Shown here: in pieces, positions 39,053 to 63,722 of the stretch
Position numbering within the stretch: the first letter of the stretch is position 1
Layout: the number at the start of each line of letters is the position of its first letter
NCBI GenBank assembly: GCA_937128475.1
Contig: CAKZML010000025.1
Location: forward strand, 1-63,722
Source: an uncultured Chromatiales bacterium
Lineage (GTDB): Bacteria; Pseudomonadota; Gammaproteobacteria; Steroidobacterales; BM003
Direction of reading: 5' to 3'
DNA length: 63,722 nt
Notes under the pieces: generated by a model
What the model saw: only the letters and a program-made list of their open reading frames with translations
Told to the model about the DNA's origin: nothing
The model's database searches: none
Translations under genes and position numbers: made by a program

Positions 39053-39368
39053 ATATTTTGATCTGCCGTGCTAACCCATGATTTTGGTGGGTTTTCTCCC
39101 GCATCAGAATCTGGGATGCAGCCCGGTCGTATTTTGCCGGGGATTTTGCCGGGCAATTTTCGCAATTTGCGAATCGCTATGTGAGAAGCCTGCTGTCATG
39201 CCGGGAATGAATCCGCAGTCTCCGGGGGTGTCGGGCGCGGATGAATTGTTGATTTTCCACGCCAACACAGACAATCTGAGGCGGGTATCCGGGGTTTCCG
39301 GGGTTTCCGGGAGATCGGTCGCGACCCCAGGCAGGAGCGTGGCGTTACAAGGGAGTGTAGGAATAATA

Positions 39369-44562: not shown

Positions 44563-44563
44563 A

Positions 44564-45577: not shown

Positions 45578-45579
45578 GA

Positions 45580-47730: not shown

Positions 47731-47740
47731 TGCCTCGCGC

Positions 47741-49003
47741 CTACTTAATCCGGATGCCGCGATCCGGACTTGTCCAGATAGCGCGGGTGCCCCGGGGCTT
47801 GCGTAAGGCCTTTGGAAGGGCGACAAGGGTGGCAGCAGTCTGGATGGTCCAATAGACCATGGGGTACCAGATCATCCAGTAGTAATAACGCCCAAGGCGG
47901 GGTTCGTAACGGCTGTCGATGGCCAGTGAGATGCCGAACTGGAGCAGGCAGGTGGCGCCCAGCACCACGCCCGCCCAGCCGGGCAGGAAGGCCGCGCCGC
48001 GCAGTACAGGCGGGAGCTCGATGAACAGGCCCACGGTCGCTACCAGGAAAATAAGCGCGATCAAGTGTGCCCAGGCGGTACTCACCACGAGTTCCAGGAC
48101 CACCAGCCAGATTCGGCGTTTCTTCCAGTTCATTAAAGACGGCCAGTAGCGCAGGAAAACCTCCAGGCCGCCCTGGGCCCAGCGCAGGCGCTGGCGCCAC
48201 AGGCCCTTGAGTGTTTCCGGCATCAGGATCCAGCATAGGGCGTTGGGTTCGTAGCGAATATCCCAGTGGTTGGACTGTAGTCGCCAGCTGATATCGATGT
48301 CCTCGGTGATCATGTTCAGATCCCAGTAGCCGACTTTTTGCAGGGCGGATTTGCGAAAGGCCGCCACCACGCCGGACACGGTGAAGACGCGCCCATAGAT
48401 TCTCTGGGCCCGCTTGATCATGCCAATAATCGAGGAGAACTCACCGACCTGGATTTTGCCCAGCAGGGAGCTTCGATTTCGAATTCGCGGGTTGCCGGTC
48501 ACTGCGCCCACCCGTGGACCGTCGTTGAAGTGACGAACAATCCATCGAGTGGCATGTTTGTCCAGCAGGGCGTCCCCGTCCAGGCAGACCAGGATTTCGT
48601 GGCGTGAGGCCAGGGCGCCCATGCGCAGACCCATAGCCTTGCCCTGGTTTTGATCAAAGTGGATGACTCGCACCCGGGGTTCGGCGGCGGCGATTTCGTC
48701 GAGAATTTCCCCGGTGCTATCCCCGCTGCAGTCGTTGATCGCAATGATCTCGAACTCGGGGTAATCCTGCTCAAGCAGCGCCTGCACTGTTTCCCGGGCG
48801 TTATCGCCCTCGTTATGACAAGGCACCAGGTAGGTCACCGGTGGGGTTTTCTTCAGTTCCGGCGGATTATCGTAGCGGCGGTGATCTGAATTTTCCCGGT
48901 AATAAAAGTAGTACACCGCACCGATCATCCACACGTAGGTCATGAACAGTGGGTAATAAAAGGCAAATTCCAGCAGGCCCTCGACCACGCCTTCAATGCT
49001 CAT
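47741..49003 (-). CDS. pgaC: Poly-beta-1,6-N-acetylglucosamine synthase (GT2)
   Basis: Processive GT2 motifs (VPCHNEG, NDCSGD, LDGDA, TEDID, RQRLRWAQGG) and flanking TM segments. Confidence 0.9.
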   Translation of the reverse strand: MSIEGVVEGLLEFAFYYPLFMTYVWMIGAVYYFYYRENSDHRRYDNPPELKKTPPVTYLVPCHNEGDNARETVQALLEQDYPEFEIIAINDCSGDSTGEILDEIAAAEPRVRVIHFDQNQGKAMGLRMGALASRHEILVCLDGDALLDKHATRWIVRHFNDGPRVGAVTGNPRIRNRSSLLGKIQVGEFSSIIGMIKRAQRIYGRVFTVSGVVAAFRKSALQKVGYWDLNMITEDIDISWRLQSNHWDIRYEPNALCWILMPETLKGLWRQRLRWAQGGLEVFLRYWPSLMNWKKRRIWLVVLELVVSTAWAHLIALIFLVATVGLFIELPPVLRGAAFLPGWAGVVLGATCLLQFGISLAIDSRYEPRLGRYYYWMIWYPMVYWTIQTAATLVALPKALRKPRGTRAIWTSPDRGIRIK

Positions 49004-50931
49004 GGCTGGCTCCTTGCGGGGAACTCAGCCACAGATATGCCCTGGCGCAGTTCTGCCTGGTCAGGGTGATTTTTAAGGAAGTCGTCCGGGTAGTAGGCCA
49101 GATTTCTGATGCCCAGTGATTGCAGCAATCTGAAGGTGTTTTTCAATTCCAGCGACGGTACCTGGCGTTTGTTTCGCCAGTCCATAGTCTGAAGTTGGAA
49201 TATGGTTCTTGATGCGCCGTTGCCGTGAGCCAGGGCGCGTTCTGCCAACTCATGATAGTAGCGTTTCGCCTCCCCGGGGTTGTCGATGTTTTCCAGGTAG
49301 GGCATCGCCATGACCGTGACGAAATCATAGTGGCCGAGGAACCGGGTGTAGTCCTGGGCAAGCAGGCGAGCCCCGTCTGTTCCAGACAGGGCCGGGGAAA
49401 ACATGTTGCGCGAGGTTTTCATACCTGCCTGGTAGTTGCCGACAAGCTTGGCCAGCTGATCGGTAAATTCCAACAGGGTGAGGGTCTTCAGAGTCGCCCA
49501 GCGCTGGGCGACCCGGGGGTTGCTTTTCAACCTCAGCAGGTCGGGAGCTTCGCCGTACAGGTCCTGGTATGCCCTGATGCCGTCGGGGCTGGCGTCTTCC
49601 AGTTCGTTGAGTCGACCATCGTCGTGAAAATGCAGTCCATCAAAACGCGCGTGGCGGGCCAGGTCTTCATAAATGCCCGTGATTACCGCCCTGGCGTCAG
49701 GATTGAAAGGGGAAAGCCTGGGTTCTGCATTGGTATCCAGGGTCTCGCCTTTGGCGCCTGCCTGCAGTACCCGCCATGCAGGGTCGATAGTATCGCCGGT
49801 GAAACTGAGGATTGGCATCCAGGCGTATACCCGCACGCCGGCCCGGGTTTTCAGTTGCCAGGCCGCCCGGTTAAACAGGTCCGAGCGCATGGGGAGATAA
49901 CGATTGGGGAAATACAGGGCTTCCGCGCCCCCATCTCCATCCAGGTCGGAAAATGCCTGGAGGAAGACATGACTGATTTGTAACTGGTGGATGCGCTCCA
50001 CGAGCACGCCCAGGTTGCGTTCCTGCTGAGCCGGGTCCGGGTCGTAAACGTAATCCAGGTCAATCTGGGCGGCCCGGACCAGGGGCGGGGCAGGGGGCCT
50101 TAACAGCATGGTCGCCAGTTCCCGGATGCCGGGGTTGTTGTTGATCAGGTGTCGGTGCAGGACGGTGCTGCCGGGCTGGTTGCCAAAATTCGGTTCCAGG
50201 GTCAGCGACCAGGGCATGCCGCTTTGCCGGGCAAGTTCAACGGTGATCTTGTTGTGGGCGCCGTAGGGCCAGGTCATTACCCTGGGGGCGCGCCCGGTGT
50301 GGCTGGCGATGATTTTCGAGCTGGTCTGCAGATCGGTGATGATTCGATTCGTATAGTCTTCACGACTCTCGTATTTGCCGTCGCTATAGAGCAGGGACAC
50401 TGCGGCGGGCTGGGTGTTGCCCTGGGGGTTGGCCATAATTCCCTGGTGCATTGCATGGCTGTGGGAGGCAAACTCCACCAGGCCCGAGTCCTGCATTTCC
50501 CGAATTTGTTCCCAGCTTACGAAGTCCGAGCGACTTCGTTGTTGCCCGGCATAGTCGATGGTCTTCTCACCGTCGACCCAATCGGTGACCAGGCTTGAAA
50601 CGGCCGGGTAGTTGAACAGCTTGAGCAGCGGGTAGACGCGGGTGTACGTGCTGATCAGGCCATCGTCAAAACTCAGCAGCACCGGGTTTGCCGGCAAGGC
50701 GTCTCCGCCGTTATTCGCTGCGACCACCTGGTCCATGCTTACCGGGTGGAAGTCGTTGTCCCGAAGCCAGCGAAAGTGCTCGACCAGGGCGCTGGTGGTG
50801 ACGGCCATGCTGTCCTGGCCCTGTTCGTCTGTGACATCGTGGTAGGTGATGACATGTAACGGCCCGGACTGCGCCATTACGAGTCCGGATGAAAGCAGCA
50901 TCAGGATGCCAAGAAGGTAACGCTTGATCAC
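49000..50931 (-). CDS. pgaB: PNAG N-deacetylase/hydrolase lipoprotein-type PgaB
   Basis: An N-terminal CE4 deacetylase pattern (LSFDDG...SHSH) plus a C-terminal GH-like domain, positioned between pgaA and pgaC. Confidence 0.85.
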   Translation of the reverse strand: MIKRYLLGILMLLSSGLVMAQSGPLHVITYHDVTDEQGQDSMAVTTSALVEHFRWLRDNDFHPVSMDQVVAANNGGDALPANPVLLSFDDGLISTYTRVYPLLKLFNYPAVSSLVTDWVDGEKTIDYAGQQRSRSDFVSWEQIREMQDSGLVEFASHSHAMHQGIMANPQGNTQPAAVSLLYSDGKYESREDYTNRIITDLQTSSKIIASHTGRAPRVMTWPYGAHNKITVELARQSGMPWSLTLEPNFGNQPGSTVLHRHLINNNPGIRELATMLLRPPAPPLVRAAQIDLDYVYDPDPAQQERNLGVLVERIHQLQISHVFLQAFSDLDGDGGAEALYFPNRYLPMRSDLFNRAAWQLKTRAGVRVYAWMPILSFTGDTIDPAWRVLQAGAKGETLDTNAEPRLSPFNPDARAVITGIYEDLARHARFDGLHFHDDGRLNELEDASPDGIRAYQDLYGEAPDLLRLKSNPRVAQRWATLKTLTLLEFTDQLAKLVGNYQAGMKTSRNMFSPALSGTDGARLLAQDYTRFLGHYDFVTVMAMPYLENIDNPGEAKRYYHELAERALAHGNGASRTIFQLQTMDWRNKRQVPSLELKNTFRLLQSLGIRNLAYYPDDFLKNHPDQAELRQGISVAEFPARSQP

Positions 50932-53420
50932 AGGCGCCCCTCCAGTCCAAGCAACAGTGTATTGCTGGTTTCCATTCCACCGTCATAGGCATGCCGGCCG
51001 CGCCGGGCGCCCAGGTTGAGTGACCAACTGTCGTTGAAGCGCATACCGAATTCGTATTCCAGGCTCCAGATGGGATTGCTTCCGTAACCGTCCTGGTAAT
51101 AGCTGCCGACCTGGGGGTGCAGTCGATGGTAAAGGCCGCGATCGGCGCCCCTGAAAACGATCCAGCGCATGTCCGCGCCGACTGTCAGGGAACGATCGCT
51201 GGATGGATTGTAGTAACTGGCCAGCTCTTCAGAGTTGCTGGAAAAATAAGCCGATCCGGTGCCGTCCAGTTTGAACCAGGTATTGTTCACCACCCTTTGC
51301 CGGCCGTAGACCGACAAGCCGCGACGTCGGTTTCCGTCATCGAAGCTGGCCAGGGTAAGGGTGCTTCCCAGGGACAGGGATTCGTTGGCGTTGTACCTGG
51401 CTCGAAATGCCACCTGGTCGCTGCTCACATCATTGAGATCAGCCCGCAGGGGCGTCTCGTAACTGTTCAGTTCGCCGCTGGCACCCACCGTCCACAGGTC
51501 TGTGATGCGCCAGTTTAGTTCGGCGTGCAGACCCGCGTCGCCGCCCCAGCGTCGGGCGCTTACCTCGGTGCGGGCGTTCCAGCCTGGTCGTCTGTATTCG
51601 GCGCCTGCTGCGATGCGCGAGCGTTGACCATCGCCTTCCGGGAATTGGGCAAAGCTGTCGAAAGTGTGGGCATAGAAACGGAACCAGTCATATTTCGGCG
51701 GTGTATACCACCAGCCCTGCAGGGTGTATTGCCGGCTGCCGAAAGTATCGCCGGTACTGTCACCGGTAGAGGCTTGAACCACCAACTGGCTTTTCTCGTG
51801 GAGACTCCAGGTCCGGGCCAGCTGCCTCACCGGCCGGCTTCCAGGATAGTCTTTCTGGAGGTTTTTAATCGCCCCGGCGGCTGCCGGGTAGTCCTGGCGG
51901 GCAAGCTGTGCGCGGGTCCAGCCGGCCCGAGCCCCCAGGTGTTCCGGGTACATGGTAAGAATTTGCTGATACTGGGCCAGTGCCTTGTCTGGCCAGCCTC
52001 GCCACAGGTATATGGACGCCAGTTCCTGTCGGGCATCCACGTTATTGGGTGCCTCGCGGGTTATTGCTTCCAGTTCCGCCTGGGCCTGGTCCAGTTGGTC
52101 TGCGTAAGAGCGGGCGAGAATCGAACGCAGGCGGGCGCTCATGTAGAGGTTGCCTGCCTGGTCGGTTCCCTGCTGGCCTGGGGATTGCCTGGCCTGCAGG
52201 GCGTCGGCGTAGGCGATGGCCTGGTCCAGTTGTCCTGATTCCAGTAGTCCGTAAAAGTATTCCGCCTGGTAATCCAGGTTGTCCGGTTCGGCGGCGAGGC
52301 ACTCTGTCAGCAGGAGCAGGGCGGTGTCAGTCTGGCCATTGGCCAGGTAGGCCCGGGCGGCGGCGAAGCGAATATTACCAGCCGGCTGCATGCCCTCGGC
52401 GGTCAGTAATTCGTATTCGGCCACCGCTTCGGCATCATGCCCCGCGTCTACCAGGGCGACCAGGCGGTCGGTACGCAGGCGCCTGTAAAGCGGTGTGCCG
52501 GGCGGGACGGTGGCGATATGCTTATCCAGTGTGGTCAGGGCCTTTTCACTGTTCGCTGATTCGCTGCCAGGTGCGGAGTAAGTTCGAGCGGCGCTGCGAA
52601 TCGACAGTGCAAGCTGGTCGCCCTTGAGGTTGTCCATCTCTTCCTGGCTGAGAATGCCGGGGTGTTGGCTAGCCAGTTCCAGGGCGAATTCCGGGAGCAT
52701 CATTTCGCGTAGCAGCAGGGCCTTTTCACGCAGTACTTTTTGCGAGGCGGGGTCCAGGGCAAGCAAGGCATCGTAAATGACCAGGCGCTGAACAGTCTTG
52801 CCCTGACTCTTGAGTATGTAGGCGTGAACCTCGAGAGCGGGAGCGGAATTTCGCTGGGACTCAGGGAGGTTTCCCAATTCCGTAATGGCTTCTTCGTAGC
52901 GCTTGCCATCCGCCAGAGTCATCGCAAGGCCAAGCCGGGCATCAAGGTTATCCGGCTGTCGGTTGAGGGCCCCGTGATACCAGCGGACGGCGTTATCAAA
53001 TTCTTTCAGGTTACGGTATGCCTTGGCCACCGTGGTGATCACCCGTATGGGGTCGCTGGCCAGGTTCAGCTGGGACCCATTGTCCACAACCTGTTGATCC
53101 CTGTTGGCCCAGGCGAGGACCAGGGTTTCGTCTATCAACAACGATCTGGCCTGGGGGTACTCAAGGCGCAGACGGTGCAACTGATCAAGTGCTTCGCTGA
53201 ACTGTCCGGATCGGGCGGCAAGAATCGCCGATTCATGTTCTTGCTGAAAGGCTGCTGGTTGGCTGGCGATAGCCGGGTAGCAGATGCACAAAAGTCCCAG
53301 CAAACCGCCGGAGATCTGCCCGGCGATTCTGCGCCGAAGAGTCTGGGCAAGGCCAGAAACCCGGGTGCGAAACCGGGCCTTTCTGCCTACCTTGGGGTGG
53401 CTTAACGATAAGTTATTCAT
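50928..53420 (-). CDS. pgaA: PNAG export porin with a TPR domain
   Basis: 830 aa with N-terminal TPR-like repeats and a C-terminal beta-barrel; first gene of the pga operon. Confidence 0.85.
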   Translation of the reverse strand: MNNLSLSHPKVGRKARFRTRVSGLAQTLRRRIAGQISGGLLGLLCICYPAIASQPAAFQQEHESAILAARSGQFSEALDQLHRLRLEYPQARSLLIDETLVLAWANRDQQVVDNGSQLNLASDPIRVITTVAKAYRNLKEFDNAVRWYHGALNRQPDNLDARLGLAMTLADGKRYEEAITELGNLPESQRNSAPALEVHAYILKSQGKTVQRLVIYDALLALDPASQKVLREKALLLREMMLPEFALELASQHPGILSQEEMDNLKGDQLALSIRSAARTYSAPGSESANSEKALTTLDKHIATVPPGTPLYRRLRTDRLVALVDAGHDAEAVAEYELLTAEGMQPAGNIRFAAARAYLANGQTDTALLLLTECLAAEPDNLDYQAEYFYGLLESGQLDQAIAYADALQARQSPGQQGTDQAGNLYMSARLRSILARSYADQLDQAQAELEAITREAPNNVDARQELASIYLWRGWPDKALAQYQQILTMYPEHLGARAGWTRAQLARQDYPAAAGAIKNLQKDYPGSRPVRQLARTWSLHEKSQLVVQASTGDSTGDTFGSRQYTLQGWWYTPPKYDWFRFYAHTFDSFAQFPEGDGQRSRIAAGAEYRRPGWNARTEVSARRWGGDAGLHAELNWRITDLWTVGASGELNSYETPLRADLNDVSSDQVAFRARYNANESLSLGSTLTLASFDDGNRRRGLSVYGRQRVVNNTWFKLDGTGSAYFSSNSEELASYYNPSSDRSLTVGADMRWIVFRGADRGLYHRLHPQVGSYYQDGYGSNPIWSLEYEFGMRFNDSWSLNLGARRGRHAYDGGMETSNTLLLGLEGRL

Positions 53421-53686
53421 GTGATTCGAAATGCTGAAAATTCGCCTGAATGCCAGTTACCGCTGAAATTTACATTGATTCCATCCGAAAAACCCCGAAC
53501 CCGGTCACAGTCCGGTGATTTCTGTAGGATTTTTGCTGTTTTTAGCGCCGGTGGAGAAGCGCCTCGGGGGGCGAAAAAGAGCAGTTTTCGCCTCGCCTAC
53601 GTACCCGTCCGTATGGTTCGGTATGATTGCTGGCCGTATCATTTCCGATTTATGCAATCAGACTTACCCGTTATTCAGAGGTTTTT

Positions 53687-55786
53687 ATGAAACGTCTTGC
53701 TGCTTTTTCAACTTTTTTCCTGGTCCTGGCCGTTGTCCTGACGGCATGTGCGACACGCCAGGAAGACCCCTATATGTGGCTAGAAGAGGTTGAAGGCGAA
53801 AAGAGTCTTCAGTGGGTTGAAACCGAGAACGCTCGCAGCAAGGTAATCCTGGAAGGCCAGCCAGAGTTCCAGGCCATGTACCAGGAAGCCCGCGAAGTCC
53901 TCAACTCCAGCGAACGAATTCCCCTGGTAAGCATTCAAGGTGACTACGTCTACAACCACTGGCAGGACAAAGAGCACGTGCGGGGCCTGTGGCGCCGGGC
54001 CAGCCTGGCCAGTTTCGGTTCAGGGGAGCCCCAGTGGGAGGTGCTGCTGGATGTGGATGCCCTGGCCGAGAGCGAGGGGGAAAACTGGATTTTCTCAGGC
54101 GCCTATCCCTGCCTGTCGCCGGAGTACAAGCTGTGCATGGTAGCCCTGTCACGGGGTGGCAAGGATGCGACGGTTTACCGGGAATTCTCGGTTGAGGACA
54201 AGGCATTTGTGGACGGGGGCTTCACGCTGCCCGAGGCTAAGAGCCGTCTTGCCTGGGAAGATGAGAACACCCTGCTGGTGGCCACCGACTGGGGTCCTGG
54301 CAGCCTGACAGAATCGGGTTATCCGCGGATTTACAAGCGCTGGATAAGGGGTGGTGATATTGCGGATGCCGGCGAAGTTTTCACCAGTCCGGAGTCCGAT
54401 GTAAGTCCGTTCGTGAGCGTCCTGCGAGACGGTGACCACCGGTTTACCCTCATCAATCGGGCAGTAACGTTTTTTGAGAGCGAGTTTTTCTTGTTGGAAG
54501 AGCAGGGGTTGAGGCAGATACCCCTGCCGTTGCATGCAGCAGTAGCGGGCATGCTGAAGGGGGAATTGGTTGTGCGGGTAGACGAGGACTGGTCCCATGA
54601 TGGCCAGACCTTTGCCCAGGGATCGGTGGTCACCATCGATCCGGCCGATTTCTCGACGGAGCTGGTGTATCAGCCGGCCCGGGGCGAGGCGGTCAGCGAG
54701 GTGATGCTGGGGGACAAGATGGTTCACCTGCAGATCCTGGACAACGTGATCGGGCGCGCCCGGCAACTGGAAAAGATAGACGGCGACTGGGTTGCGCGTA
54801 CCCTGGACCTGCCTGATAACGGCGTGGTGACCCTGGTTTCTGTGAGCGGCGACGATGACAGCCTGCTCGTGAGTTTTGAGAGCCTGACCGTTCCCGACAG
54901 TCTGTACCTGGCCAGCCCTGATGGGAGCCTGGAGCAGGCGTACTCGCTGCCGGCGTTCTACGATGCCTCGGACGTGGAAGTTTCCCAGCGATTCGCGATC
55001 AGCAAGGATGGAACCCGGGTTCCCTATTTCGTGATGGGTCGCAAGGACGTGCTGGCCAATGGCAACGCGCCCACCATCCAGTACGGATATGGCGGTTTCC
55101 TGGTTCCAATTTTGCCCGAATACTATGACGAGAATGCACGGCCCCAACATGGCGCCCTGGCCGGTCGCATGTGGGTGGCTCGCGGTGGTGTGCTGGTGCT
55201 CTCCAATATTCGTGGTGGCGGTGAATACGGTCCGGCCTGGCACCAGGCAGCCCTGAAAGAAAACCGGCACCTGGCTTACGAAGATTTCTTCGCCATCGGT
55301 GAAGCCCTGGTTGAGACTGGCGTGACCACGCCGGAGAAACTCGGCGCTATCGGTCGCTCTAACGGTGGGTTGCTGATGGGTGCAGTGCTAACCCAGCGCC
55401 CAGACTTGTATGCGGCCATCGATTGCGGTGTGCCGTTGCTGGATATGCTGCGCTATCACCGGCTGCTGGCCGGTGCCAGCTGGATGGGTGAATACGGCAA
55501 TCCGGACGTACCTGTCGAGCGTGCCTACCTTGAGACTTATTCGCCCTACCAGGCACTGAAGCCGGGAGTGAAGTACCCTGAGGTGCTGTTCTATACCTCT
55601 ACCAAGGATGACCGGGTGCATCCGGGGCACGCCAGGAAAATGGCTGCCAGGATGCGTGAGTACGGCAACAGTTTCTTGATGTACGAAAACATGGAAGGTG
55701 GTCATGGCGGGGCGGCCAACCAGGACCAGCTGGCCTACCGTGCAGCGCTGGAATACGCCTATTTCAGCTTGAAATTGATGAAATAA
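53687..55786 (+). CDS. Prolyl oligopeptidase family (S9A) serine peptidase, lipoprotein-type signal
   Basis: Lipobox VLTAC, the N-terminal DPYMWLE motif, the catalytic GRSNGG, and a C-terminal D...H (DDRVHPGHARK). The start is set at the ATG at 53687. Confidence 0.85.
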   Translation: MKRLAAFSTFFLVLAVVLTACATRQEDPYMWLEEVEGEKSLQWVETENARSKVILEGQPEFQAMYQEAREVLNSSERIPLVSIQGDYVYNHWQDKEHVRGLWRRASLASFGSGEPQWEVLLDVDALAESEGENWIFSGAYPCLSPEYKLCMVALSRGGKDATVYREFSVEDKAFVDGGFTLPEAKSRLAWEDENTLLVATDWGPGSLTESGYPRIYKRWIRGGDIADAGEVFTSPESDVSPFVSVLRDGDHRFTLINRAVTFFESEFFLLEEQGLRQIPLPLHAAVAGMLKGELVVRVDEDWSHDGQTFAQGSVVTIDPADFSTELVYQPARGEAVSEVMLGDKMVHLQILDNVIGRARQLEKIDGDWVARTLDLPDNGVVTLVSVSGDDDSLLVSFESLTVPDSLYLASPDGSLEQAYSLPAFYDASDVEVSQRFAISKDGTRVPYFVMGRKDVLANGNAPTIQYGYGGFLVPILPEYYDENARPQHGALAGRMWVARGGVLVLSNIRGGGEYGPAWHQAALKENRHLAYEDFFAIGEALVETGVTTPEKLGAIGRSNGGLLMGAVLTQRPDLYAAIDCGVPLLDMLRYHRLLAGASWMGEYGNPDVPVERAYLETYSPYQALKPGVKYPEVLFYTSTKDDRVHPGHARKMAARMREYGNSFLMYENMEGGHGGAANQDQLAYRAALEYAYFSLKLMK

Positions 55787-55801
55787 TGCATTGGGTGAAA
55801 C

Positions 55802-55828
55802 GGGCAAGAGCTGATTTCGCTCTTGTCC
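55802..55828 (+). terminator. Stem-loop after the peptidase gene (possible terminator; no U-tract)
   Basis: GGGCAAGAGC / TGATTTC / GCTCTTGTCC forms a 10-bp stem with one G-U pair. Confidence 0.3.
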
Positions 55829-55882
55829 GGGCTGTCCGAAGAGCTGACTGAAAACGAATAACCAGAGACTGGAGAAAGTGCT

Positions 55883-57760
55883 TTGCTGAAGCGACTGTGG
55901 AAAAAAGCGAGCTTGCTGTGCCTGCTCGCCCTGGTTTGGGTGTCTCCGACTGCGTTGGCGCAGACCTACCGCTACGAGACAAGTGAACGTCTGGTGGTGA
56001 TTGGTGATTCCCACGGCGCATTTGACAGTTATTCAGCACTACTGGCCGAGGTCGGGCTCGTCGACGGCAAACTGAAATGGTCCGGTGGGAAAGCAAACCT
56101 TGTGAGCCTGGGGGACTTTCTGGATCGCGGTGCGGATTCACGCAAGATAATGGACCTGCTGATGCGTCTGCAGAAAGAGGCGGCCAAGAGCGGCGGTAAG
56201 GTGCATGTGTTGCTGGGCAATCATGAGCTCATGAACCTGACTGGTGATCTTCGTAATGTCAGCCCCCAGGAATTTCTTTCCTACCAGGACATGGAAGATC
56301 CAAAAGAACGACTGGCTGTGCGCGAGTACTTTGACCAGAATCCGGAAGAGCGTCGGGACTCGGATTTTGACCAGCTTTATCCCCCGGGTTTCTTCGGTCA
56401 CCGCAAGGCTTTCTCCAGCGAAGGCAAATATGGAAAGTGGTTGCGTACGCTGCCGTTCCTGATTGTTATCAACGACAAGGCTTTCACTCATGGTGGACTG
56501 CCCAGGTTGGTGGCGGAGCAGGGGCTGGAAGGCACCAATCGGTCCATGGCCGAGGCAATTTCCCAGTACGACGAGTTGTGGGCGGTGGTCAGCAAAGATA
56601 TCGGCCTGGTGTTGCCCGCGACATTCAGGCAGCGCCCACGGCTGTCTGAGGCGTCCACCCTTCCGGAAGCTGAAAAATTCAGAAAGCTTTACTGGAAGCC
56701 ACTGTTTTCTCCTGAGGGCCCTTTGTGGGCGCGTGAAGACAGTATGTGTTTGCCTGTGACGGTGGAGGGAACCCTGGACGCATCTCTTGCGGCCCTGGGT
56801 GCCAGCCAGTTGGTTGTGGGGCATACGGTTACCTTTAACAAGCACATTTCCAGTCGACTGAACGGCAAGGTCATCATGATCGATACCGGAATGCTGAACA
56901 GCGTGTATACCGGGGGTATTGCTTCGGCACTGGTGGTGGAGAAGGGTGTGAATTCGGCCTTCTACCTTGGGCAGGGTGGTGGACACAAGATATTACCTTT
57001 GCCCCGGCAGGTGGGTTCCAGGCCCGCCTCCATGAGTGATGATGAGCTCGAGGTGTTTTTGAGTGAAGCGGAAATCGTGCTCGCTGAATACCTGGGTAAG
57101 GGAATTACCAAGCCAAAAAAAGTGATCCTTGAGCGGGACGGTATCCAGTTGCAGGCCATCTTTAAGGACGTAAGATTTAAAGAACAACGTATGGGCAACA
57201 CCATCGTTGAATTCGCTGATCACTGGCGTAACGAAGTCGCCGCCTACAAGCTCGATCGACTTATGGGCCTGGAAGCTGTTCCGGTTACCGTGGAGCGCGA
57301 GGTGGAGGGCAAGCGAGGCTCATTGCAGTTCTGGGTTCACGGGTTGATGAACTGGAGAACTGTCTCCGAGGCGGGCAAGGCACCGGGGAACTGGTGCGAA
57401 ATGCTTCCCCAGTACCAGGTTCTGAAGGTATTCGATGCGCTGGTTCACAACCTGGATCGGACCCAGGAGAACCTGGCATTTGAAAAATCTGACTGGAAGT
57501 TGATCCTTATCGACCATTCCCGAGCCTTTGCAGCAAGGCCAAGAATTCTCGACAAAATTGAGTCTGAGTACCTGGTGGTGACACCTGCCATGGCGAAACG
57601 CCTGGAGGCCCTGACAGAGGAGTCGGTGCTGGCCGCCACAAGGCCATACCTTAACTTGAGTCAGGTGCGTACCCTTATGGCCAGGCGCGATATTCTTTTG
57701 CGTGACTACCTGGCTGAGGTCCCGGGATCGACTGAGCCGGAAACCTCCGGCGACCACTGA
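55883..57760 (+). CDS. Signal-peptide-bearing fusion of a PPP-family (Shelph/ApaH-like) metallophosphatase and a C-terminal PI3/PI4-kinase-like (PI4K type II / SCO1664-like) domain, copy 1
   Basis: Signal MLKRLWKKASLLCLLALVWVSPTALA/Q. Phosphatase motifs GDSHG, GDFLDRG, GNHE, THGG, VGHT. Kinase-like motifs AIFKD, NEVAAYKLDRLMGLEAVPVT, HNLDRTQEN, LIDHSRAF. TTG start preceded by GGAGA. Confidence 0.7.
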   Translation: MLKRLWKKASLLCLLALVWVSPTALAQTYRYETSERLVVIGDSHGAFDSYSALLAEVGLVDGKLKWSGGKANLVSLGDFLDRGADSRKIMDLLMRLQKEAAKSGGKVHVLLGNHELMNLTGDLRNVSPQEFLSYQDMEDPKERLAVREYFDQNPEERRDSDFDQLYPPGFFGHRKAFSSEGKYGKWLRTLPFLIVINDKAFTHGGLPRLVAEQGLEGTNRSMAEAISQYDELWAVVSKDIGLVLPATFRQRPRLSEASTLPEAEKFRKLYWKPLFSPEGPLWAREDSMCLPVTVEGTLDASLAALGASQLVVGHTVTFNKHISSRLNGKVIMIDTGMLNSVYTGGIASALVVEKGVNSAFYLGQGGGHKILPLPRQVGSRPASMSDDELEVFLSEAEIVLAEYLGKGITKPKKVILERDGIQLQAIFKDVRFKEQRMGNTIVEFADHWRNEVAAYKLDRLMGLEAVPVTVEREVEGKRGSLQFWVHGLMNWRTVSEAGKAPGNWCEMLPQYQVLKVFDALVHNLDRTQENLAFEKSDWKLILIDHSRAFAARPRILDKIESEYLVVTPAMAKRLEALTEESVLAATRPYLNLSQVRTLMARRDILLRDYLAEVPGSTEPETSGDH

Positions 57761-57774
57761 CAAACTTCGTAAGC

Positions 57775-59112
57775 TTATCTGCCCGGTTCCGGTGCGCTCT
57801 GGAATTCCGGTCGCTCCGCTTTCCGGGCATATTCCCTGCCGGCGGATATGGCGATGGCGACCATCACTAACGCCAGGATTGCGTCAAAGACCAGGAACTG
57901 ACGATGTCCCCAGCCGAGCAAGTCTGCGCCAATGAATACGGTACCCGCCGCCACCAGGTCTCCGCAACGGAAGAAAAACGTATCGATTGCGGTCTTGGCC
58001 TCATATTTTGCTTCCCTGCTTGCGGGTAGCAACAGCGCATTTCTGCAGGTGTTGAGTAGCGAATAGTCGAGGCTCTTGATGGCGATGACACCCCACTTCA
58101 TGACTATCAGTGCCGGTATTGCAGCCATACCCACAAAGGAAATTGCGAAGATCAAAGGCGGTATGGCTACTGCGACCTTGACCCCAAAAGTGATGATGAT
58201 CCGGGAAACGAGAAGCAGTTGAATGCCGCTGCTGAAGATCGTTATCCATGAGAAAAGATCACCCATGAATGCGGCGATCATGGCCTGTCTCTCGCCTTCG
58301 GGTAGCGTCATGGAAAGCTGCACGACGTAATCTGACATTACGTACTCACCGGTAGTGGTGATCCAGTTGAGCATCACCACCAGGGTGGCCAGGCTCAGCA
58401 GGTACCTGTCTTGTAATACCAGTCCGAGACCGCCCAGGGCCTTGGTCATGATATTGTCGGCACGGCTGATTTGCTTTGCCCTGGCTCTGGCGGGGACAGC
58501 GTTGCCGGCAAATCGGCTCAGGGGTAGAGAGGCAAGGAACAGCCCGGCCGATAACATCATGAGGCCGCCGGCCCCCAGCCATGGGTACAGGAATTTGGCA
58601 ATCTGGGCGCCCAGCAAGCCGCCTACCGAAATGCCGAAGGCAATGATGGCAAACAATCGCTGTCCCGCTCTTACGCTGAACAGGTCCGTGGCGTAGGCCC
58701 AGAATTGAGAGGTGACCATTACACCCACGGCCCCGGCGTACACATAAAAAGCGAAGCCTACATTCAGGCCGATATTTTCCAGGGCATAGAAAATAAGCAG
58801 GCCCATTGCCAGCAGGAAATACACGCGCTGTATCAACAGAGATTTTCTCTGCATACGGAACAGCATGCCGTACAAGGGCAGCAGGAGAATGAGAACCAGC
58901 GCCTGTGCCCCTGTAGCGTATGTGCGCAGGGCCGCGTCGCCTTCGGTGAGGATCAGGGCCTCGCGAACCGGCTTGAGAAGGTAGTACGCCAACATGATTA
59001 CGGTGGCGTTAAGAAGCAGCCACGCGATCACCCGGCCTTCGCCTGGGCGAATTCGGGTAAACAAAGAAAGCAGTCGTTCGAATGGCGATAATCGAAGAGA
59101 TTCTTGGGTCAT
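57775..59112 (-). CDS. TLC (ATP:ADP antiporter, AAA family)-like 12-TM transporter, copy 1
   Basis: The N-terminus (FERLLSLFTRIRPGEGRVIAWLLLNATVIMLAYYLLKPVREALIL) fits the TLC-family N-terminal pattern as I recall it. Polytopic, and convergent with copy 1 of the fusion gene. Confidence 0.5.
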   Translation of the reverse strand: MTQESLRLSPFERLLSLFTRIRPGEGRVIAWLLLNATVIMLAYYLLKPVREALILTEGDAALRTYATGAQALVLILLLPLYGMLFRMQRKSLLIQRVYFLLAMGLLIFYALENIGLNVGFAFYVYAGAVGVMVTSQFWAYATDLFSVRAGQRLFAIIAFGISVGGLLGAQIAKFLYPWLGAGGLMMLSAGLFLASLPLSRFAGNAVPARARAKQISRADNIMTKALGGLGLVLQDRYLLSLATLVVMLNWITTTGEYVMSDYVVQLSMTLPEGERQAMIAAFMGDLFSWITIFSSGIQLLLVSRIIITFGVKVAVAIPPLIFAISFVGMAAIPALIVMKWGVIAIKSLDYSLLNTCRNALLLPASREAKYEAKTAIDTFFFRCGDLVAAGTVFIGADLLGWGHRQFLVFDAILALVMVAIAISAGREYARKAERPEFQSAPEPGR

Positions 59113-59294
59113 GTTTTGTATTTTTTAGTGAGCGCTTTCAGCATGGTGAGATAAATCCTAGCAGTTTCAAAAAATAAATGCCCAAGCCCTAATCAGAAAA
59201 ATCGGACAATAAATATTTAGAAAAATTAATGAAATCGACCTAGACTCATAGGCAGTCGTAAATTATTAACGGATTTGTGTCGACTTAACCGGCC

Positions 59295-61220
59295 TTGGAG
59301 GGTGCAGTCATTTCACTCTTAACCAGATTCTATTTCCTCGTCTTTTTCCTGGTGCCGGTCTTGGTGCCGGATGTGAGTTGGTCTGCTGAACCGGTGGAGA
59401 CGGTTCAGGTTGAAGATGAACTGGTGCAACCGACCCAGGCTGAAGAGAAGAAAACGTATAGATACAGCGATGTGGAAAAGGTCGTTGTGATTGGAGACAT
59501 CCACGGTGCCCACCAGTCCCTTGTCAAAGTACTCAAAAAGTCTGGCTTACTCGATGAGGATGCCAAGTGGGCCGGAGGCAAGACTCACCTGGTGAGTCTT
59601 GGTGATCTCCTGGACAGGGGGGCCGAGTCCAGGAAGATCATGGATCTGCTGATGTCTCTACAGGAGCAGGCCAGGGCCGCGGGTGGACGGGTCCACGTCC
59701 TGATGGGTAATCATGAGCTCATGAATATGAGCGCCGATACCGAGTATGTGAGTGCCGCCGAATTCTCTTCCTACCGGGATCTTGAGACGCCCGAGGTAAG
59801 GGAGGCTGAACAGTTACGTTACGAAACCCTGTTGCCGGAACAGCGGACAAAAACGTTTGATCAAAAATATCCCCCCGGGTTTTTTGGTCACCAATTGGCA
59901 ATGTCGGAAACGGGTGCCTACGGCGCGTGGTTACGCAGCCTGCCCTACATGATCGTAATTAACGACATGGCCCTGGTGCATGGTGGCTTGCCTCAAATGG
60001 TGGCGGATCTGGGCCTGGAAGGTACCAATCAGAAGCTGGATGACATGTTCCGCGCGTACGAGACAAGCTGGAATGCCCTGGTCCAGGCCAAGGGGCTAGA
60101 GGGTTATGCCAGCTACAATGAGAAATTTGATATCGCCATGGCGCTTCCTGAAGAGGAGGGTGCAGGATTTCTCGCCGCTGCGCATGCGGAACTATTCTCT
60201 CCGGATGGCCCTTTGTGGTCCCGGGAGGATTCCGTATGCATCCCGTTGACCGTGGAAGATATTCTCGATGCAGCGTTGACCAGGTTGGGCGTAAATCGGG
60301 TGGTGGTTGGTCATACGGTGACCCCGGATAACCTGATCACAACTCGCTTCGAGGGCCGGGTGGTCATGGTGGATACCGGAATGCTCTCAAGTGTTTACCA
60401 AGGAGGCAGAGGCTCGGCCCTGGTTGTTGAGGGCGGAAATCTCAGTGCCATCTATGAAGATCATGACCTCTCCAGCGCTGTGCTGGAAATGCCCCGTCGC
60501 GTGGGTGATCGTCCCGGTGGCTTGACAGACGATGAACTCGAGCAGTTCCTCATGACAGCAAAGATTGTGAAAGTGTCTGATGTGGGCCACGGAGTCACCC
60601 ACCCCCTTCGAGTTGACCTTGAGAAGGATGGGATCGCGTTAAGCGCAGTATTCAAAGACGTGAACTTCAAGGAAGTCCGCAAGGGTCGAAGAATCGAGGC
60701 CATGGGTGATCGCTGGAATCACGAGGTTGCCGCCTACGGCCTGGATCGCTTGCTTGATCTGAGGCTGGTGCCGGTAACGGTCCCGAGGGTTGTTGATGGA
60801 AAAGAAGGCTCGCTTCAGTACTGGGTGGATGGCCTGGTCAATCAGATCGATATGCAAGAGCAGGGACTGGCTCCAGGTGACTGGTGTTCGAGGGTTTCCC
60901 AGCATGAACTGCTCAGGGTCTTCGATGCCCTAATCTACAACCAGGATCGAACCCAGCAGAATCACACTTACGACCCGCGCTATTGGAGAATGGTCTTGAT
61001 CGACCACTCCCGTTCTTTTGAGACCTCCAGCAACTTCCCGGAGAGCATAAGGAAGAGTCCGCACCTGGTGGTGCGCCCGGCGGTGGCGAAAAGACTGGCC
61101 ACATTAACCGAAAATAATGTGAAAATCGCAACTCGCGGTTACCTCAAGCCGGTCCAGGTCAGAAAGATACTTATCAGGCGGGACAAGTTGCTGAAATCCT
61201 ACCAGGCTGCTGATCAGTAA
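59295..61220 (+). CDS. PPP-phosphatase / PI3-PI4-kinase-like fusion, copy 2 (paralogue of 55883-57760)
   Basis: Same motif set: GDIHG, GDLLDRG, GNHE, VHGG, VGHT; AVFKD, HEVAAYGLDRLLDLRLVPVT, YNQDRTQQN, LIDHSRSF. The N-terminus is hydrophobic, ending SWSA/EP. The start codon is uncertain (TTG at 59295). Confidence 0.7.
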   Translation: MEGAVISLLTRFYFLVFFLVPVLVPDVSWSAEPVETVQVEDELVQPTQAEEKKTYRYSDVEKVVVIGDIHGAHQSLVKVLKKSGLLDEDAKWAGGKTHLVSLGDLLDRGAESRKIMDLLMSLQEQARAAGGRVHVLMGNHELMNMSADTEYVSAAEFSSYRDLETPEVREAEQLRYETLLPEQRTKTFDQKYPPGFFGHQLAMSETGAYGAWLRSLPYMIVINDMALVHGGLPQMVADLGLEGTNQKLDDMFRAYETSWNALVQAKGLEGYASYNEKFDIAMALPEEEGAGFLAAAHAELFSPDGPLWSREDSVCIPLTVEDILDAALTRLGVNRVVVGHTVTPDNLITTRFEGRVVMVDTGMLSSVYQGGRGSALVVEGGNLSAIYEDHDLSSAVLEMPRRVGDRPGGLTDDELEQFLMTAKIVKVSDVGHGVTHPLRVDLEKDGIALSAVFKDVNFKEVRKGRRIEAMGDRWNHEVAAYGLDRLLDLRLVPVTVPRVVDGKEGSLQYWVDGLVNQIDMQEQGLAPGDWCSRVSQHELLRVFDALIYNQDRTQQNHTYDPRYWRMVLIDHSRSFETSSNFPESIRKSPHLVVRPAVAKRLATLTENNVKIATRGYLKPVQVRKILIRRDKLLKSYQAADQ

Positions 61221-61269
61221 GACTCTTTGGCGTCGTTTAATCGGGTGTCGTTTCGGGTGACGGGTTCGA

Positions 61270-62883
61270 CTAGTCTTCGATGATCAGCCTGAATGTCTGG
61301 CTGGTGAACAGCCCGTCGTAATCCGTTGCGATGACGCGTATTACCAGTTCTTCCCGGTGTCCCATGGGGGGCGTTGCTTCAATCACGTGCCTGCGCTTGT
61401 CCAGGCGCACCCAGGCCGGTAGCGAGGAGCCGCAGTGCAGCTCGGCGCGTATGGTCAGCACCTCTCCGGCATCATCGTCCAGGAAGGCATTGGGTGGAAT
61501 GACATGATGAGTGCATCGGCCCGAGCAAATGGTGGCGTCTGGGATTTGCTCTCCGACAAACGGAGCGGAGTTGAATTCTGGCAAGGCAATGCGCTGGGCA
61601 TAAGATTTGCCAATGAACAAAGACACCACCAGCATACATGTGGCCAACACGATATTAACGATTATGAATTCATTGTGGCCCCATCTTAGAAATTCAACGC
61701 CGATCAGCACGGTGAATGCGGAGAGCAGGTCGCCGGCGCGGAAAAACAGTGTGTCGATCGCCGTTTTCCCTTCGTATTTCACTGTTCTTGAAGTGGGAAG
61801 GAGCAGCGCGTTTCGGCAAGTGTTGAGTAGCGAGTAATCCAGGCTCTTCACTGCAATGACTGCCCACCGCGTCACGGCCAGAAGTGGCAGCAAACCCATA
61901 GCCATATAGCTGACGACGAAAATCGCCGGGGAGACCGCCAGCGCCACCCTGATTCCAAACTTGATGATGATCCTGGAGACAAAAAGCAGTTGAAAGACTG
62001 CGCTCAGCAAGGTCACCCAGAACATGACCCCTGCCTGAAATTTACCTATCCAGATTTCCCGGTCTACCGCCGGCATCGCCATGGAGGCGTCCTTGATGAA
62101 ATCGTTCAGAATGAACTCGCCGGTAGCACCCGACCAGTTCAGCAGCACCACCAGGGCAGCGATGGAAATCAGGTAGCGGTCCTTCAATACCAGGGCGAGG
62201 CCGCCGAACATTTTCTGGACGGTGTCCGCCTGGGTCTCCAGCGGCGGCGGGCGGCTCTCTATGGGTACCGAATCATTGGACAGCTTTGACAGGGGCAGTG
62301 TCGATAGAAACACAAAAGCTGCGACAATAAGCAATCCATCCGCGCCGACAAGATCGAGTAGATGTCGGGCCAGGATTGTCCCGAACAGAGCGCCCAGGCT
62401 GACTCCCATTCCAATTACCGCGAACAGGCGTTGCCCGGTTTTCGGGTTTAACAAGTCGGTTGCGAATGCCCAGAACTGGGATGTCACCATTACTGCCATG
62501 ATCCCGGTCCAGATAAACAGGACGAAACCGATATGGAAGCCCATCTGGTGTGCGATGAAAAACGGAATGAGGCTGAATGCGAGGATAAAGTTGATTCGCT
62601 GAATCAGCAGGGACTTGTCTTGCAAGCGAAAAAGCATCCCGTAAAGAGGCAGGATAAAAATTAGCAGCGCCGCCTGGATGCCAGATGCATAGCTTCGTAG
62701 CGCGGCCGACCCTTCGGTAAGGATGAAGGTTTCCCTGGTTGTTCGAACCAGGTAATACGCGCACATAAGCAGGAAAGCATGTAGCAGAAGCCAGGCCACG
62801 CTTCTGCCTTCACCCGGACGAATCGTGGTGAACAGGCTAATGAATTTTTCGAACGATGTGAGTTCGGATCTATTTACTAGCAC
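61270..62883 (-). CDS. TLC-like transporter, copy 2, with a C-terminal ~96-aa cadherin-like (dystroglycan-type/He_PIG-like) domain
   Basis: Paralogous to 57775-59112 along the membrane part. The extra tail FLDDDAGEVLTIRAELHCGSSLPAWVRLD...VIRVIATDYDGLFTSQTFRLII is cadherin-like. The start is set at the GTG at 62883, preceded by AAGGGAG. Confidence 0.5.
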   Translation of the reverse strand: MLVNRSELTSFEKFISLFTTIRPGEGRSVAWLLLHAFLLMCAYYLVRTTRETFILTEGSAALRSYASGIQAALLIFILPLYGMLFRLQDKSLLIQRINFILAFSLIPFFIAHQMGFHIGFVLFIWTGIMAVMVTSQFWAFATDLLNPKTGQRLFAVIGMGVSLGALFGTILARHLLDLVGADGLLIVAAFVFLSTLPLSKLSNDSVPIESRPPPLETQADTVQKMFGGLALVLKDRYLISIAALVVLLNWSGATGEFILNDFIKDASMAMPAVDREIWIGKFQAGVMFWVTLLSAVFQLLFVSRIIIKFGIRVALAVSPAIFVVSYMAMGLLPLLAVTRWAVIAVKSLDYSLLNTCRNALLLPTSRTVKYEGKTAIDTLFFRAGDLLSAFTVLIGVEFLRWGHNEFIIVNIVLATCMLVVSLFIGKSYAQRIALPEFNSAPFVGEQIPDATICSGRCTHHVIPPNAFLDDDAGEVLTIRAELHCGSSLPAWVRLDKRRHVIEATPPMGHREELVIRVIATDYDGLFTSQTFRLIIED

Positions 62884-63318
62884 GTAGCTCCCTTTGACCC
62901 AAAATCCGCCCTGCGCGCCGGATAGACAGTGTCTGGATGTGCCCATCCTGGGCGTTGTTCAGTGCGCGTTCTTCTCGCGGGGAAAAGGCGCGTTCTTGAG
63001 GTAACCATACTTTATAACTCGAATTCCGCAATAGCCTTCTTAAATTAGTCAGGTAGCCTCAATAAAAAGGAGATTCCATGGCCGTAAAAGGCGTTCTCCA
63101 GTTCGAGTTTTTCTTTGGCCTCCCTGCGTCGAAAAAGTTCCTGAGTACGATGAATAGTGTTTGATTTAGTCATGAAGTTGGGTCCTTTGCTGGAATTGCG
63201 TAGCGGTCTGGCTATACTGGATGGCAAGCACAGCAAATTATTTGCTGCTGCGGTGGGTGTTTTGGCGTGAGTTTCACGGTCAGAACTTTCCATTAATTCC
63301 ACATAGCAGGTAGAAAAA

Positions 63319-63722
63319 ATGTCGAAAGAACTTACCGCACTTGAGCGCGCGTTCAAGAATGCCGAACGCGAATTTGTCAGGGTTTCTCAAAAGACCTTGA
63401 AGTCTCTGGACAGGGAGTCAAAGAAGGTAGCCCGCGATCTGCAGCGCGCCAAGACCCGTGCAGAGCGTTATAAAAACGATGTCATGAAGAAATCAGAGAA
63501 GCTCGCCAAGACTTCTGCTGCAAGTGCCAAGAGGCAGTTGCGCTCCCAGATCAACAAGCTGGACAAGGCTTTGAATGAAGCCATGGATGAAGTCGAAGCC
63601 CATAGAATTAACCTGGCTCCTTTGCGGGCCCAGTTGAAGAATGCTCGGGCTTTTGCCATGAGAGCCACTCACCTGAGCAAGGCTGTCAGCAAGAAAGAGA
63701 AGGAACTGGATAAGAAGGCAGG
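63319..63722 (+). CDS. Lys/Arg/Ala-rich coiled-coil protein (AlgP/H1-like or phasin-like N-terminus); 3' end is off-window
   Basis: ATG at 63319, with the frame open to the window end and a heptad-like charged sequence (MSKELTALERAFKNAEREF...KRQLRSQINKLDKALNEAMDEV). It is absent from the ORF track because there is no stop in the window. Confidence 0.45.
   Translation, partial: MSKELTALERAFKNAEREFVRVSQKTLKSLDRESKKVARDLQRAKTRAERYKNDVMKKSEKLAKTSAASAKRQLRSQINKLDKALNEAMDEVEAHRINLAPLRAQLKNARAFAMRATHLSKAVSKKEKELDKKA

Follow-up and report, generated by a model that had tools for sequence, protein, structure and literature searches.

The 63,722-nucleotide contig CAKZML010000025.1 of an uncultured Chromatiales bacterium (assembly GCA_937128475.1; the whole stretch is referred to as the window) carries a tandem pair of convergent gene modules at positions 55883–62946. 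Each module combines an apparently exported fusion of a PPP-type phosphatase and an atypical kinase, designated F1 or F2, with an inner-membrane transporter of the NTT/TLC nucleotide carrier family, designated T1 or T2. Kinase, phosphatase and transporter are very probably linked in function, because the three stay together through fusion, fission, strand inversion and change of neighbours. They may constitute an extracytoplasmic phosphorylation and dephosphorylation module that is fed with ATP by its dedicated transporter. The case for this proposal, in which activity, cargo, direction and substrate are those that we infer, is about evenly balanced. A wider generalisation is more tentative: many free-living Gram-negative bacteria may export ATP through divergent NTT/TLC carriers, often gated by cyclic nucleotides, and so power a periplasmic Fam20-like kinase that is opposed by a PPP phosphatase.

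The four open reading frames lie where the preliminary description of this DNA had placed two convergent modules. F1 (55883–57760, + strand) encodes 625 residues and converges on T1 (57775–59112, − strand), a protein of 445 residues with probably about 12 transmembrane segments that is assigned by Pfam, TIGR00769, a family profile and hydropathy. The second module consists of F2 (59295–61220, +; 641 residues), which by motifs and identity repeats the signal peptide, PPP phosphatase and kinase architecture of F1, and T2 (61270–62946, −; 558 residues), a paralog of T1 with a C-terminal He_PIG domain recognised by Pfam. The stop codons are 14 bp apart at the F1/T1 junction and 49 bp apart at the F2/T2 junction. 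T1 and F2 are divergent, and the 182-bp spacer between them (59113–59294, no strand) is presumed from this layout alone to be a shared promoter region. A scan of positions 55600–63722 for sigma-70-like promoters returned 0 matches against 4.5 ± 1.8 in shuffled sequences. Terminator-like sites in the 55.6–63.7 kb scan numbered 7 against 7.9 expected, and no convincing intrinsic terminator is found in the window scan at either convergent junction.

F1 and F2 are 51% identical across 595 residues, and T1 and T2 are likewise 51% identical across 439 residues, which is lower than the 55–60% first estimated by eye. Each fusion has orthologs of its own. Those of F1 share 63–86% identity with F1 and about 48% with F2, and those of F2 (P0016, P0018, P0024, and P0028) share 56–59% with F2 and 50–53% with F1, while the Steroidobacteraceae-type fusions are equidistant from both (about 43% each). 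The F1-T1-F2-T2 order is also present on independent contigs of relatives (loci L163 and L164), where the F1 ortholog is about 66% identical. The layout there comprises pgaDCBA (−), an S9 peptidase, F1, convergent T1, F2, and convergent T2 including the He_PIG domain. The tandem layout is therefore not an assembly artefact. Since F1 and F2 have separate ortholog sets and relatives keep the full layout, the duplication of the whole pair is best read, as had been suggested, as an old and retained one in which both fusions keep all catalytic motifs. In another Chromatiales-labelled metagenome-assembled genome, of estuarine origin (JAOTSW010000203.1, L003), a T1 fragment 95% identical to T1 of the window adjoins an F2 ortholog, and the source of the window is probably closely related to it.

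The N-terminal half of F1 and F2 is a PPP-type phosphatase. In F1 the domain spans about residues 29–365 (55967–56977, +) and is delineated by motifs, phmmer and Foldseek. Five PPP motifs, GDxHG, GDxxDRG, GNHE, HGG, and GH, are present in both fusions and invariant in an alignment of 30 family members; in F1 they correspond to GDSHG at 41–45, GDFLDRG at 77–83, GNHE at 112–115, HGG at 203–205, and GH at 313–314. The Pfam Metallophos model (PF00149) scores F1 at 44.5 bits (E = 3e-11) and F2 at 51.9 bits (E = 1.7e-13), against a cut-off of 21.5. The closest solved homolog is the cold-active protein-tyrosine phosphatase (PTPase) of Shewanella (2z72), with E = 3.2e-22 in a phmmer search of the PDB and E = 5e-19 in a Foldseek search with the F1 model, where the template-modelling score (TM) normalised to target is 0.67. 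PP5, calcineurin, and ApaH follow far behind, at around 1e-8 to 1e-7. The Shewanella enzyme (1v73 and 2z72) adopts the PPP fold and shares all PPP motifs with the F1 domain, but the two are only 22–23% identical. Judging from its PDB chain, it has one domain only and no partner kinase, whereas F1 is a fusion. On these resemblances, the phosphatase half most probably acts on phosphoproteins.

The C-terminal half folds as an atypical kinase. The domain occupies about residues 378–612 of F1 (57014–57718, +) and is supported by profile searches against the PDB, by structural models and by conservation. Its functional residues comprise a G-x-G-x-T-x-P loop at 405–411, K428, E451, D525-R-x-x-x-N530, and I543-D544-H545. 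K428, E451, D525, N530, and D544 are invariant or at least 90% conserved in the 30-member alignment, and the kinase lysine, DRxxxN and IDH motifs noted earlier, like those of the phosphatase, are invariant in it. The AlphaFold2 model of full-length F1 has a mean predicted local distance difference test score (pLDDT) of 88.6 and a predicted template-modelling score of 0.86. A separate model of residues 372–625 reaches a pLDDT of 83. Both models bear out the kinase fold that had been predicted, with conserved ATP-binding lysine, αC glutamate, and catalytic and metal-binding residues.

The closest solved relatives of the kinase domain are the Fam20 kinases of the secretory pathway, with the type II phosphatidylinositol 4-kinases (PI4Ks) a significant second. 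In the Foldseek search with the full-length model, phosphatases come first, followed by Fam20C, Fam20A, and Fam20B-type kinases. With the domain-only model, ranks 1–23 are all Fam20 structures (TM 0.63–0.68 normalised to query), after which come type II PI4Ks (TM 0.45–0.56) and then class III phosphatidylinositol 3-kinase (PI3K) and PI4KIIIβ. A sequence profile of the kinase domain (A3) matches Fam20A at 7.6e-9, human Fam20C at 2.8e-6, a Fam20B-type xylosylkinase at 3.3e-6, and C. elegans Fam20 at 5e-4, but PI4K2B merely at 0.03. An independent profile built from stand-alone homologs (A6) matches Fam20A at 1.4e-10, other Fam20 proteins at 3e-7 to 2e-6, and PI4K2A/B at about 4e-6. The domain had been described as PI3/PI4-kinase-like. 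Its atypical kinase nature holds and type II PI4Ks are significant relatives, but Fam20 is closer.

The aligned segments cover the whole catalytic apparatus. The A-x-F-K strand carries the ATP-binding K428, the αC helix reads E451-V-A-A-Y-x-L-D-R-L, the catalytic loop reads F-D-x-L-x-x-N-x-D525-R-x-x-x-N530, and the metal-binding segment reads I-D544-H-S-R-x-F. Motifs shared between the two families are A-x-F-K, E-[IV]-AA-[FY]-x-LDR-[IL]-L...VP, FD-x-L-I-x-N-x-DR, and D-x-x-R-x-F. The residue numbers of the catalytic set in human Fam20C are presumably those assigned by Xiao et al. (2013).

Fam20 and the F proteins are also alike in possessing an N-terminal signal for the secretory route and in residing in a compartment that needs imported ATP. 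However, the bacterial domain is not a strict Fam20 member and forms a family of its own without assignment, because it contains only about 240 residues against about 400 in Fam20, its TM normalised to target is just 0.40–0.49, and it falls below the Pfam Fam20C threshold. The Fam20-specific N-terminal segment and insertions are missing, and the bacterial domain, unlike Fam20, is fused or linked to a phosphatase. Type II PI4Ks (PI4K2A/B) have the catalytic loop and the metal-binding aspartate in common with the F kinase domain. Among its solved relatives they rank second, behind Fam20 in each comparison. They are cytosolic, palmitoylated lipid kinases, whereas the F proteins carry export signals.

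The kinase-domain profile retrieves 3,002 cluster representatives (clusters at 50% identity) at E ≤ 1e-3, of which 1,424 reach E ≤ 1e-10. They comprise F1-like fusions of about 620 residues, forms with long linkers, and many stand-alone proteins of 250–310 residues that begin with a signal peptide and keep the catalytic residues. Several variants stand out among them. A low-complexity Pro/Ala-rich linker of 100–150 residues joins phosphatase to kinase among P0356 (803 residues), P0291, and P0385. In P0242 (898 residues), the phosphatase precedes a tandem pair of kinase-like domains; the catalytic loop of the first is degenerate (NASRSESD). A tblastn search of the PLSDB plasmids with the kinase domain gave no match.

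Both fusions appear to be exported by the Sec pathway, since their signal peptides look cleavable. The F1 signal peptide, MLKRLWKKASLLCLLALVWVSPTALA, covers residues 1–26 (55883–55960, +), with predicted cleavage after ALA and before Q. As judged by its N-terminal physico-chemical features, it has four basic residues in the n-region, a hydrophobic core score of 3.08, and an A-L-A cleavage motif. Signal-peptide-like N-termini had been reported for both fusions, and by heuristic scoring the same features, a basic n-region, a hydrophobic core of 10–15 residues and a small-x-small site, recur in all 30 family members. Among these relatives it is the physico-chemical pattern that is kept, not the sequence of the signal. 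After cleavage, 29 of the 30 would have exactly two cysteines, the invariant C289 of the phosphatase domain and C505 of the kinase domain. With one invariant cysteine in each domain, the pattern is that expected for a single conserved interdomain disulfide in an oxidising compartment, and this reading is consistent with export.

T1 and T2 are, on sequence grounds, divergent yet genuine members of the NTT/TLC family. The Pfam TLC model (PF03219) scores T1 at 23.1 bits and T2 at 29.4 bits against a gathering cut-off of 21 and matches all 20 members of the transporter family, with a best E of 1.4e-14. T2 is additionally scored by MFS_1 (33.9 bits) and He_PIG (21.7 bits). T1 alone finds no match in the PDB with phmmer. 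A profile of the 20 family members, searched against 177,635 distinct PDB sequences, matches only two, 9j3n (1.9e-14) and 9j3j (1.6e-8). Both are ADP,ATP carrier proteins, 9j3j being the chloroplast NTT1, and no generic MFS protein in the PDB is matched even at E ≤ 10. A non-nucleotide MFS identity, named earlier as a possible counter-finding for the transporter, is not borne out by these matches. The TLC signature motifs FW-x-FA...(K/R)(F/L)(Y/F) and KS-x-x-Y-x-L...P...K-x-AID align in the family, and relatives are already annotated as 'NTP/NDP exchange transporter' or 'AAA family ATP:ADP antiporter'. TIGR00769, the model for NTP/NDP exchange transporters, does not match T2.

An automated hydropathy scan of T1 and T2 is noisy, and manual reading gives 12 transmembrane segments and a basic N-terminus. 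A cytoplasmic C-terminus is implied by relatives that bear C-terminal cNMP-binding domains. The He_PIG domain of T2, which is Ig-like, spans residues 463–556 (61279–61560, −) and is matched by Pfam at E = 2.7e-4. In T2 orthologs the match reaches E = 3e-9, and the TLC plus He_PIG architecture recurs (e.g., L098:3177–4826, and L164). This domain is possibly cytoplasmic, if the protein has 12 transmembrane segments and its N-terminus lies inside, a placement that depends on the manual hydropathy reading. A He_PIG domain in the cytoplasm, as the standard NTT topology would have it, is unusual for this domain type, and the He_PIG domains of the T2 type hold several cysteines.

The T family shares the signature motifs with the NTT/TLC antiporters of Chlamydiae, Rickettsiales, and plastids (TC 2.A.12), and its hydropathy pattern would fit about 12 transmembrane segments. 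It differs in that several acidic positions of the conserved NTT C-terminal motif are replaced by asparagine. It occurs in free-living bacteria that make ATP themselves, and the direction proposed here, export, is opposite to the import bias of characterised NTTs. NTT-family genes are widespread in free-living bacteria, and the NTT-HEAT and NTT-HEAT-cyclic-nucleotide-binding domain (cNBD) fusions among them have been surveyed, with no function reported (Major, Embley and Williams 2017, PMC5381601); the survey makes no mention of kinases, phosphatase neighbours, or the periplasm. The NTT-HEAT-cNBD fusions have an architecture identical to that of the split-system transporter described below (TLC, HEAT_2, and two cNMP_binding domains), whereas T1 and T2 of the window contain neither HEAT nor cNBD domains.

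The linkage between fusion and transporter was followed in 80 fusion loci, obtained by a forward scan that retained one genome per species. Among the 27 loci closest to F1 (40–69% identical), 21 have a convergent T homolog immediately downstream. For three of the other six, no sequence is available downstream, so that the count is 21 of 24 informative loci. The 53 more distant loci (34–40%; Woeseiaceae, Lysobacterales, Holophagae, and others) contain a T homolog in eight cases. Among these eight are Kangiellaceae, where the transporter gene is located upstream of the fusion on the same strand. When the loci flanked by 3 kb or more on each side were searched with local hidden Markov models, a TLC-like gene was found in 13 of 46 (about 28%), within 500 bp in 12 of the 13. 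The pairing is therefore clade-dependent and not universal. Its occurrence outside this genome, on which the earlier interpretation leaned, stands for 21 of the 27 closest loci and for the five split loci considered next, but extends to about 28% of the fusion loci with 3 kb or more on each side.

In loci with a stand-alone kinase, found by a scan of metagenomes, the phosphatase is often encoded by a separate adjacent gene, and a TLC-like gene (23–28% identical to T1) is frequently nearby. This split cassette consists of a gene for a TLC plus HEAT protein of 850–1,245 residues, a same-strand gene for a kinase of about 280 residues, and a convergent Metallophos gene. The longest of the transporters have two cNMP-binding domains in addition, and one of the kinases matches Pfam Fam20C at E = 2.6e-4. 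The TLC-HEAT-cNBD protein has more than 2,000 homologs. In the reverse test, the cassette is present at all five sampled loci of such homologs (long contigs, 54–75% identity to the query), which belong to distant phyla and have flanking genes that are unrelated from locus to locus. Against the kinase profile, the five genes of about 280 residues reach E values of about 1e-47, and against the N-domain profile the Metallophos genes reach 1e-82 to 1e-90. Each of the five kinases carries a signal peptide, and the phosphatases keep all five PPP motifs. A signal-peptide-like N-terminus is present in four of the five phosphatases; the gene call at L169 starts at the first PPP motif. Chance adjacency of the three genes was rejected in view of the persistence of the triad with unrelated flanks and in three gene architectures.

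Genes for cyclic-nucleotide signalling accompany the module in other lineages. In Steroidobacteraceae-type loci, a Crp-family regulator (cNMP_binding plus HTH_Crp_2) is encoded divergently to the fusion. The same loci encode a class III adenylate/guanylate cyclase with fused TPR/BTAD repeats. The Crp and cyclase genes lie upstream of the fusion at L004, L007, L009, L013, L016, L017, and L025. The window contains no Crp-type or cyclase gene near F and T. The cNMP domains on the transporters, together with the Crp and cyclase neighbours, suggest that cAMP or cGMP regulates the module.

The periplasm has no ATP-generating system and is ATP-free by textbook account, which is why an ATP-supplying role is proposed for the transporter. 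In the proposed module, Sec would export F1 and F2 to the periplasm and possibly beyond. The Fam20-like domain would phosphorylate a protein or glycan substrate, located in the envelope or secreted, and the fused PPP domain would take the phosphate off again. The transporter would swap cytoplasmic ATP for periplasmic ADP, possibly together with Pi, and thereby fuel the kinase. In other lineages, ATP supply may be gated by cyclic nucleotide through cNMP-binding domains or through Crp and adenylate cyclase. Nucleotide carriers feed Fam20C in the Golgi/ER lumen, and the proposed supply of ATP from T to F would parallel that of the secretory pathway.

A number of observations weigh against this proposal. 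Characterised carriers work in the opposite direction: PamNTT1 strongly favours ATP import, and its export is 'negligible' (PMC1951785), so that export by the T family would require this divergent clade to have the opposite bias. T1 scores 32.8 bits with TIGR00769 (E = 3.6e-8) against a cut-off of 387.2. ATP in the periplasm would be lost by leakage through porins and by the action of phosphatases and nucleotidases in that compartment (PMC7432876). F and T of the window are convergent and therefore not co-transcribed, and about 70% of the more distant fusion loci, for instance those of Woeseiaceae, have no transporter within 6 kb. The signal-peptide calls come from direct scoring of n-region, hydrophobic core, and cleavage site rather than from SignalP. 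Protein, glycan, and lipid are all candidates for the substrate class of the kinase.

The single-sequence scans for the kinase domain point the same way. With Pfam Fam20C (PF06702), F1 and F2 give no match at E ≤ 0.1 and the best relative reaches 21.2 bits against a threshold of 26.8; among 20 stand-alone kinases, three match, all below threshold. PI3_PI4_kinase (PF00454) scores F1 at 14.8 bits against 27.1, and 14 of the 20 stand-alone kinases match it below threshold (best E 4.3e-7; P0297 at 23.9 bits). HipA_2 (PF20613) gives 21.0 and 16.8 bits against 27, and the SCO1664 family model (TIGR03843) gives 31.9 against a cut-off of 172.4. Assignment to HipA_2, PI3_PI4_kinase, or SCO1664 from these Pfam and NCBIfam scans was rejected, all matches being sub-threshold, and the classification relies on profiles and structure.

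The import bias of the known carriers also bears on an unlikely alternative, extracellular nucleotide scavenging, in which the Metallophos domain would act on nucleotides, the kinase-like domain would bind or interconvert them, and the TLC protein would import the products. All characterised NTTs import nucleotides, PamNTT1 with a clear bias. The best sub-threshold NCBIfam matches of the N-terminal domain include the dinucleoside tetraphosphatases ApaH and PrpE, and the ApaH structure 9ojd is among the fold-search matches. Yet the nearest solved relative of this domain is the PTPase by a wide margin (3e-22, and 5e-19 by Foldseek against 4e-8 for ApaH). Scavenging would leave unexplained a catalytically conserved kinase that is tied to the transporter even when the phosphatase is separately encoded, and an extracellular kinase would still be in need of a phosphate donor. 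It is decidedly unlikely that F1 and F2 are instead secreted effectors, acting beyond the outer membrane on another organism or a matrix with ambient or host ATP, with a TLC importer merely co-inherited. Although signal peptides cannot tell periplasmic from fully secreted proteins, Legionella uses Fam20 and PI4KII-like kinases as effectors (PMC9758233), and a poly-N-acetylglucosamine (PNAG) biofilm operon lies beside the locus in the window's lineage, the lineages that carry the module live freely in sediment and soil (Steroidobacteraceae, Woeseiaceae, Kangiellaceae, and Vicinamibacterales). Secretion-system genes do not recur in the examined neighbourhoods, and the tight transporter linkage in three architectures with unrelated flanks favours a functional tie.

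The kinase-like domain could also be a pseudokinase, a module with a different ATP-dependent activity (AMPylation or glutamylation, for example), or a module that docks substrates for the phosphatase. The top PDB sequence match is indeed the pseudokinase Fam20A, and atypical kinase folds are frequently associated with non-kinase chemistry. But unlike Fam20A, the family keeps the αC glutamate (E451) along with the lysine, the catalytic Asp and Asn, and the metal-binding Asp, which makes this reading very unlikely. Any of the ATP-dependent activities would need extracytoplasmic ATP all the same, and the logic of the transporter would therefore be unchanged. Cyclic-nucleotide handling, finally, is highly improbable. 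Here the transporter would export cAMP or cGMP, the Metallophos domain would be a class III-like cNMP phosphodiesterase, and the kinase-like domain would have a regulatory or binding role. This reading fits the cNMP_binding domains of the split-system transporters and, in Steroidobacteraceae-type loci, the genes for a Crp-like regulator and an adenylate cyclase that adjoin the fusion; in addition, one source labels a homolog CpdA. The PPP motifs GDxxDRG and GNHE and the sequence and fold matches, by contrast, are those of protein phosphatases and not of the CpdA/Rv0805 type. Invariant kinase catalytic residues would be left without explanation, and a regulatory role accounts for the cNMP domains equally well.

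The components of the proposed phosphorylation module belong to known superfamilies, but the system as a whole apparently has no described counterpart in bacteria. Full-text literature searches found no system with the same architecture, in agreement with the preliminary description, and no mention of bacterial or prokaryotic Fam20 homologs. A kinome survey confines the FAM20 cluster to eukaryotes or Metazoa (PMC9758233). The view of a eukaryotic or metazoan invention is altered by an exported bacterial family that comprises about 3,000 clusters and is closest to Fam20; this family offers simple models for extracytoplasmic phosphorylation. If the proposal is correct, the bacterial proteins would be prokaryotic relatives, possibly the evolutionary source, of eukaryotic secretory-pathway kinases.

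A review of extracellular ATP in bacteria treats its route across the inner membrane into the periplasm as unknown and describes Gram-negative bacteria as having no ATP/ADP translocase homologs (PMC7432876). A homolog of ATP:ADP carriers that is genetically tied to a predicted exported kinase bears directly on this question. The proposal, if true, would provide a mechanism for ATP entry into the periplasm and a genuine extracytoplasmic phospho-signalling or modification cycle, as well as a function for orphan proteins of the NTT and NTT-HEAT-cNBD types in free-living bacteria. The kinase and phosphatase neighbours of NTT-HEAT-cNBD proteins are a new observation and give a concrete, testable hypothesis for the role of orphan NTTs. 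The components of the module are small and soluble, or easily reconstituted.

In transporter-less loci of the Woeseiaceae type, a conserved exported Cys-rich protein of about 357 residues is encoded near the fusion, usually divergent and upstream (22 loci; examples among L032–L078 are L066:3861–4934 and L058:4736–5794). Its invariant motifs are N-T-D, C-C-H-N, and P-Y-D-F-D. The protein has no Pfam match and no PDB profile match, and a CotH-like identity was dropped for this reason. The gene is often accompanied by genes for DUF4956, SdiA-regulated-like, and alpha/beta-hydrolase proteins. The protein may take the place of the transporter or complement it.

Directly upstream of the module, the window contains a complete pgaABCD-type PNAG operon (47215–53420, −), composed of PgaA (50928–53420; TPR plus barrel), PgaB (49000–50931; deacetylase/GHL13), PgaC (47741–49003; GT2), and PgaD (47215–47826), all on the − strand. 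An S9 prolyl oligopeptidase (53627–55786, +) ends 96 bp upstream of F1, is kept beside F1 in L163 and L164, and may be co-transcribed with it. Its longest open reading frame begins too early; an internal Met gives MKRLAAFSTFFLVLAVVLTAC, which resembles a lipoprotein signal with a lipobox. The synteny with the pga operon is kept in L163 and L164 and not in other clades, and a functional tie of the module to pgaABCD and the S9 peptidase was rejected on account of this limitation to the window's lineage. The remaining neighbourhood of the window encodes a sigma-54 response regulator (35574–36992), a DUF4842 protein (37023–38537), a 493-residue protein without a Pfam match (39078–40559), a YgiQ-like radical SAM protein (41022–43265), and a branched-chain 2-oxoacid dehydrogenase E2/E1β/E1α operon (43330–46818, −).

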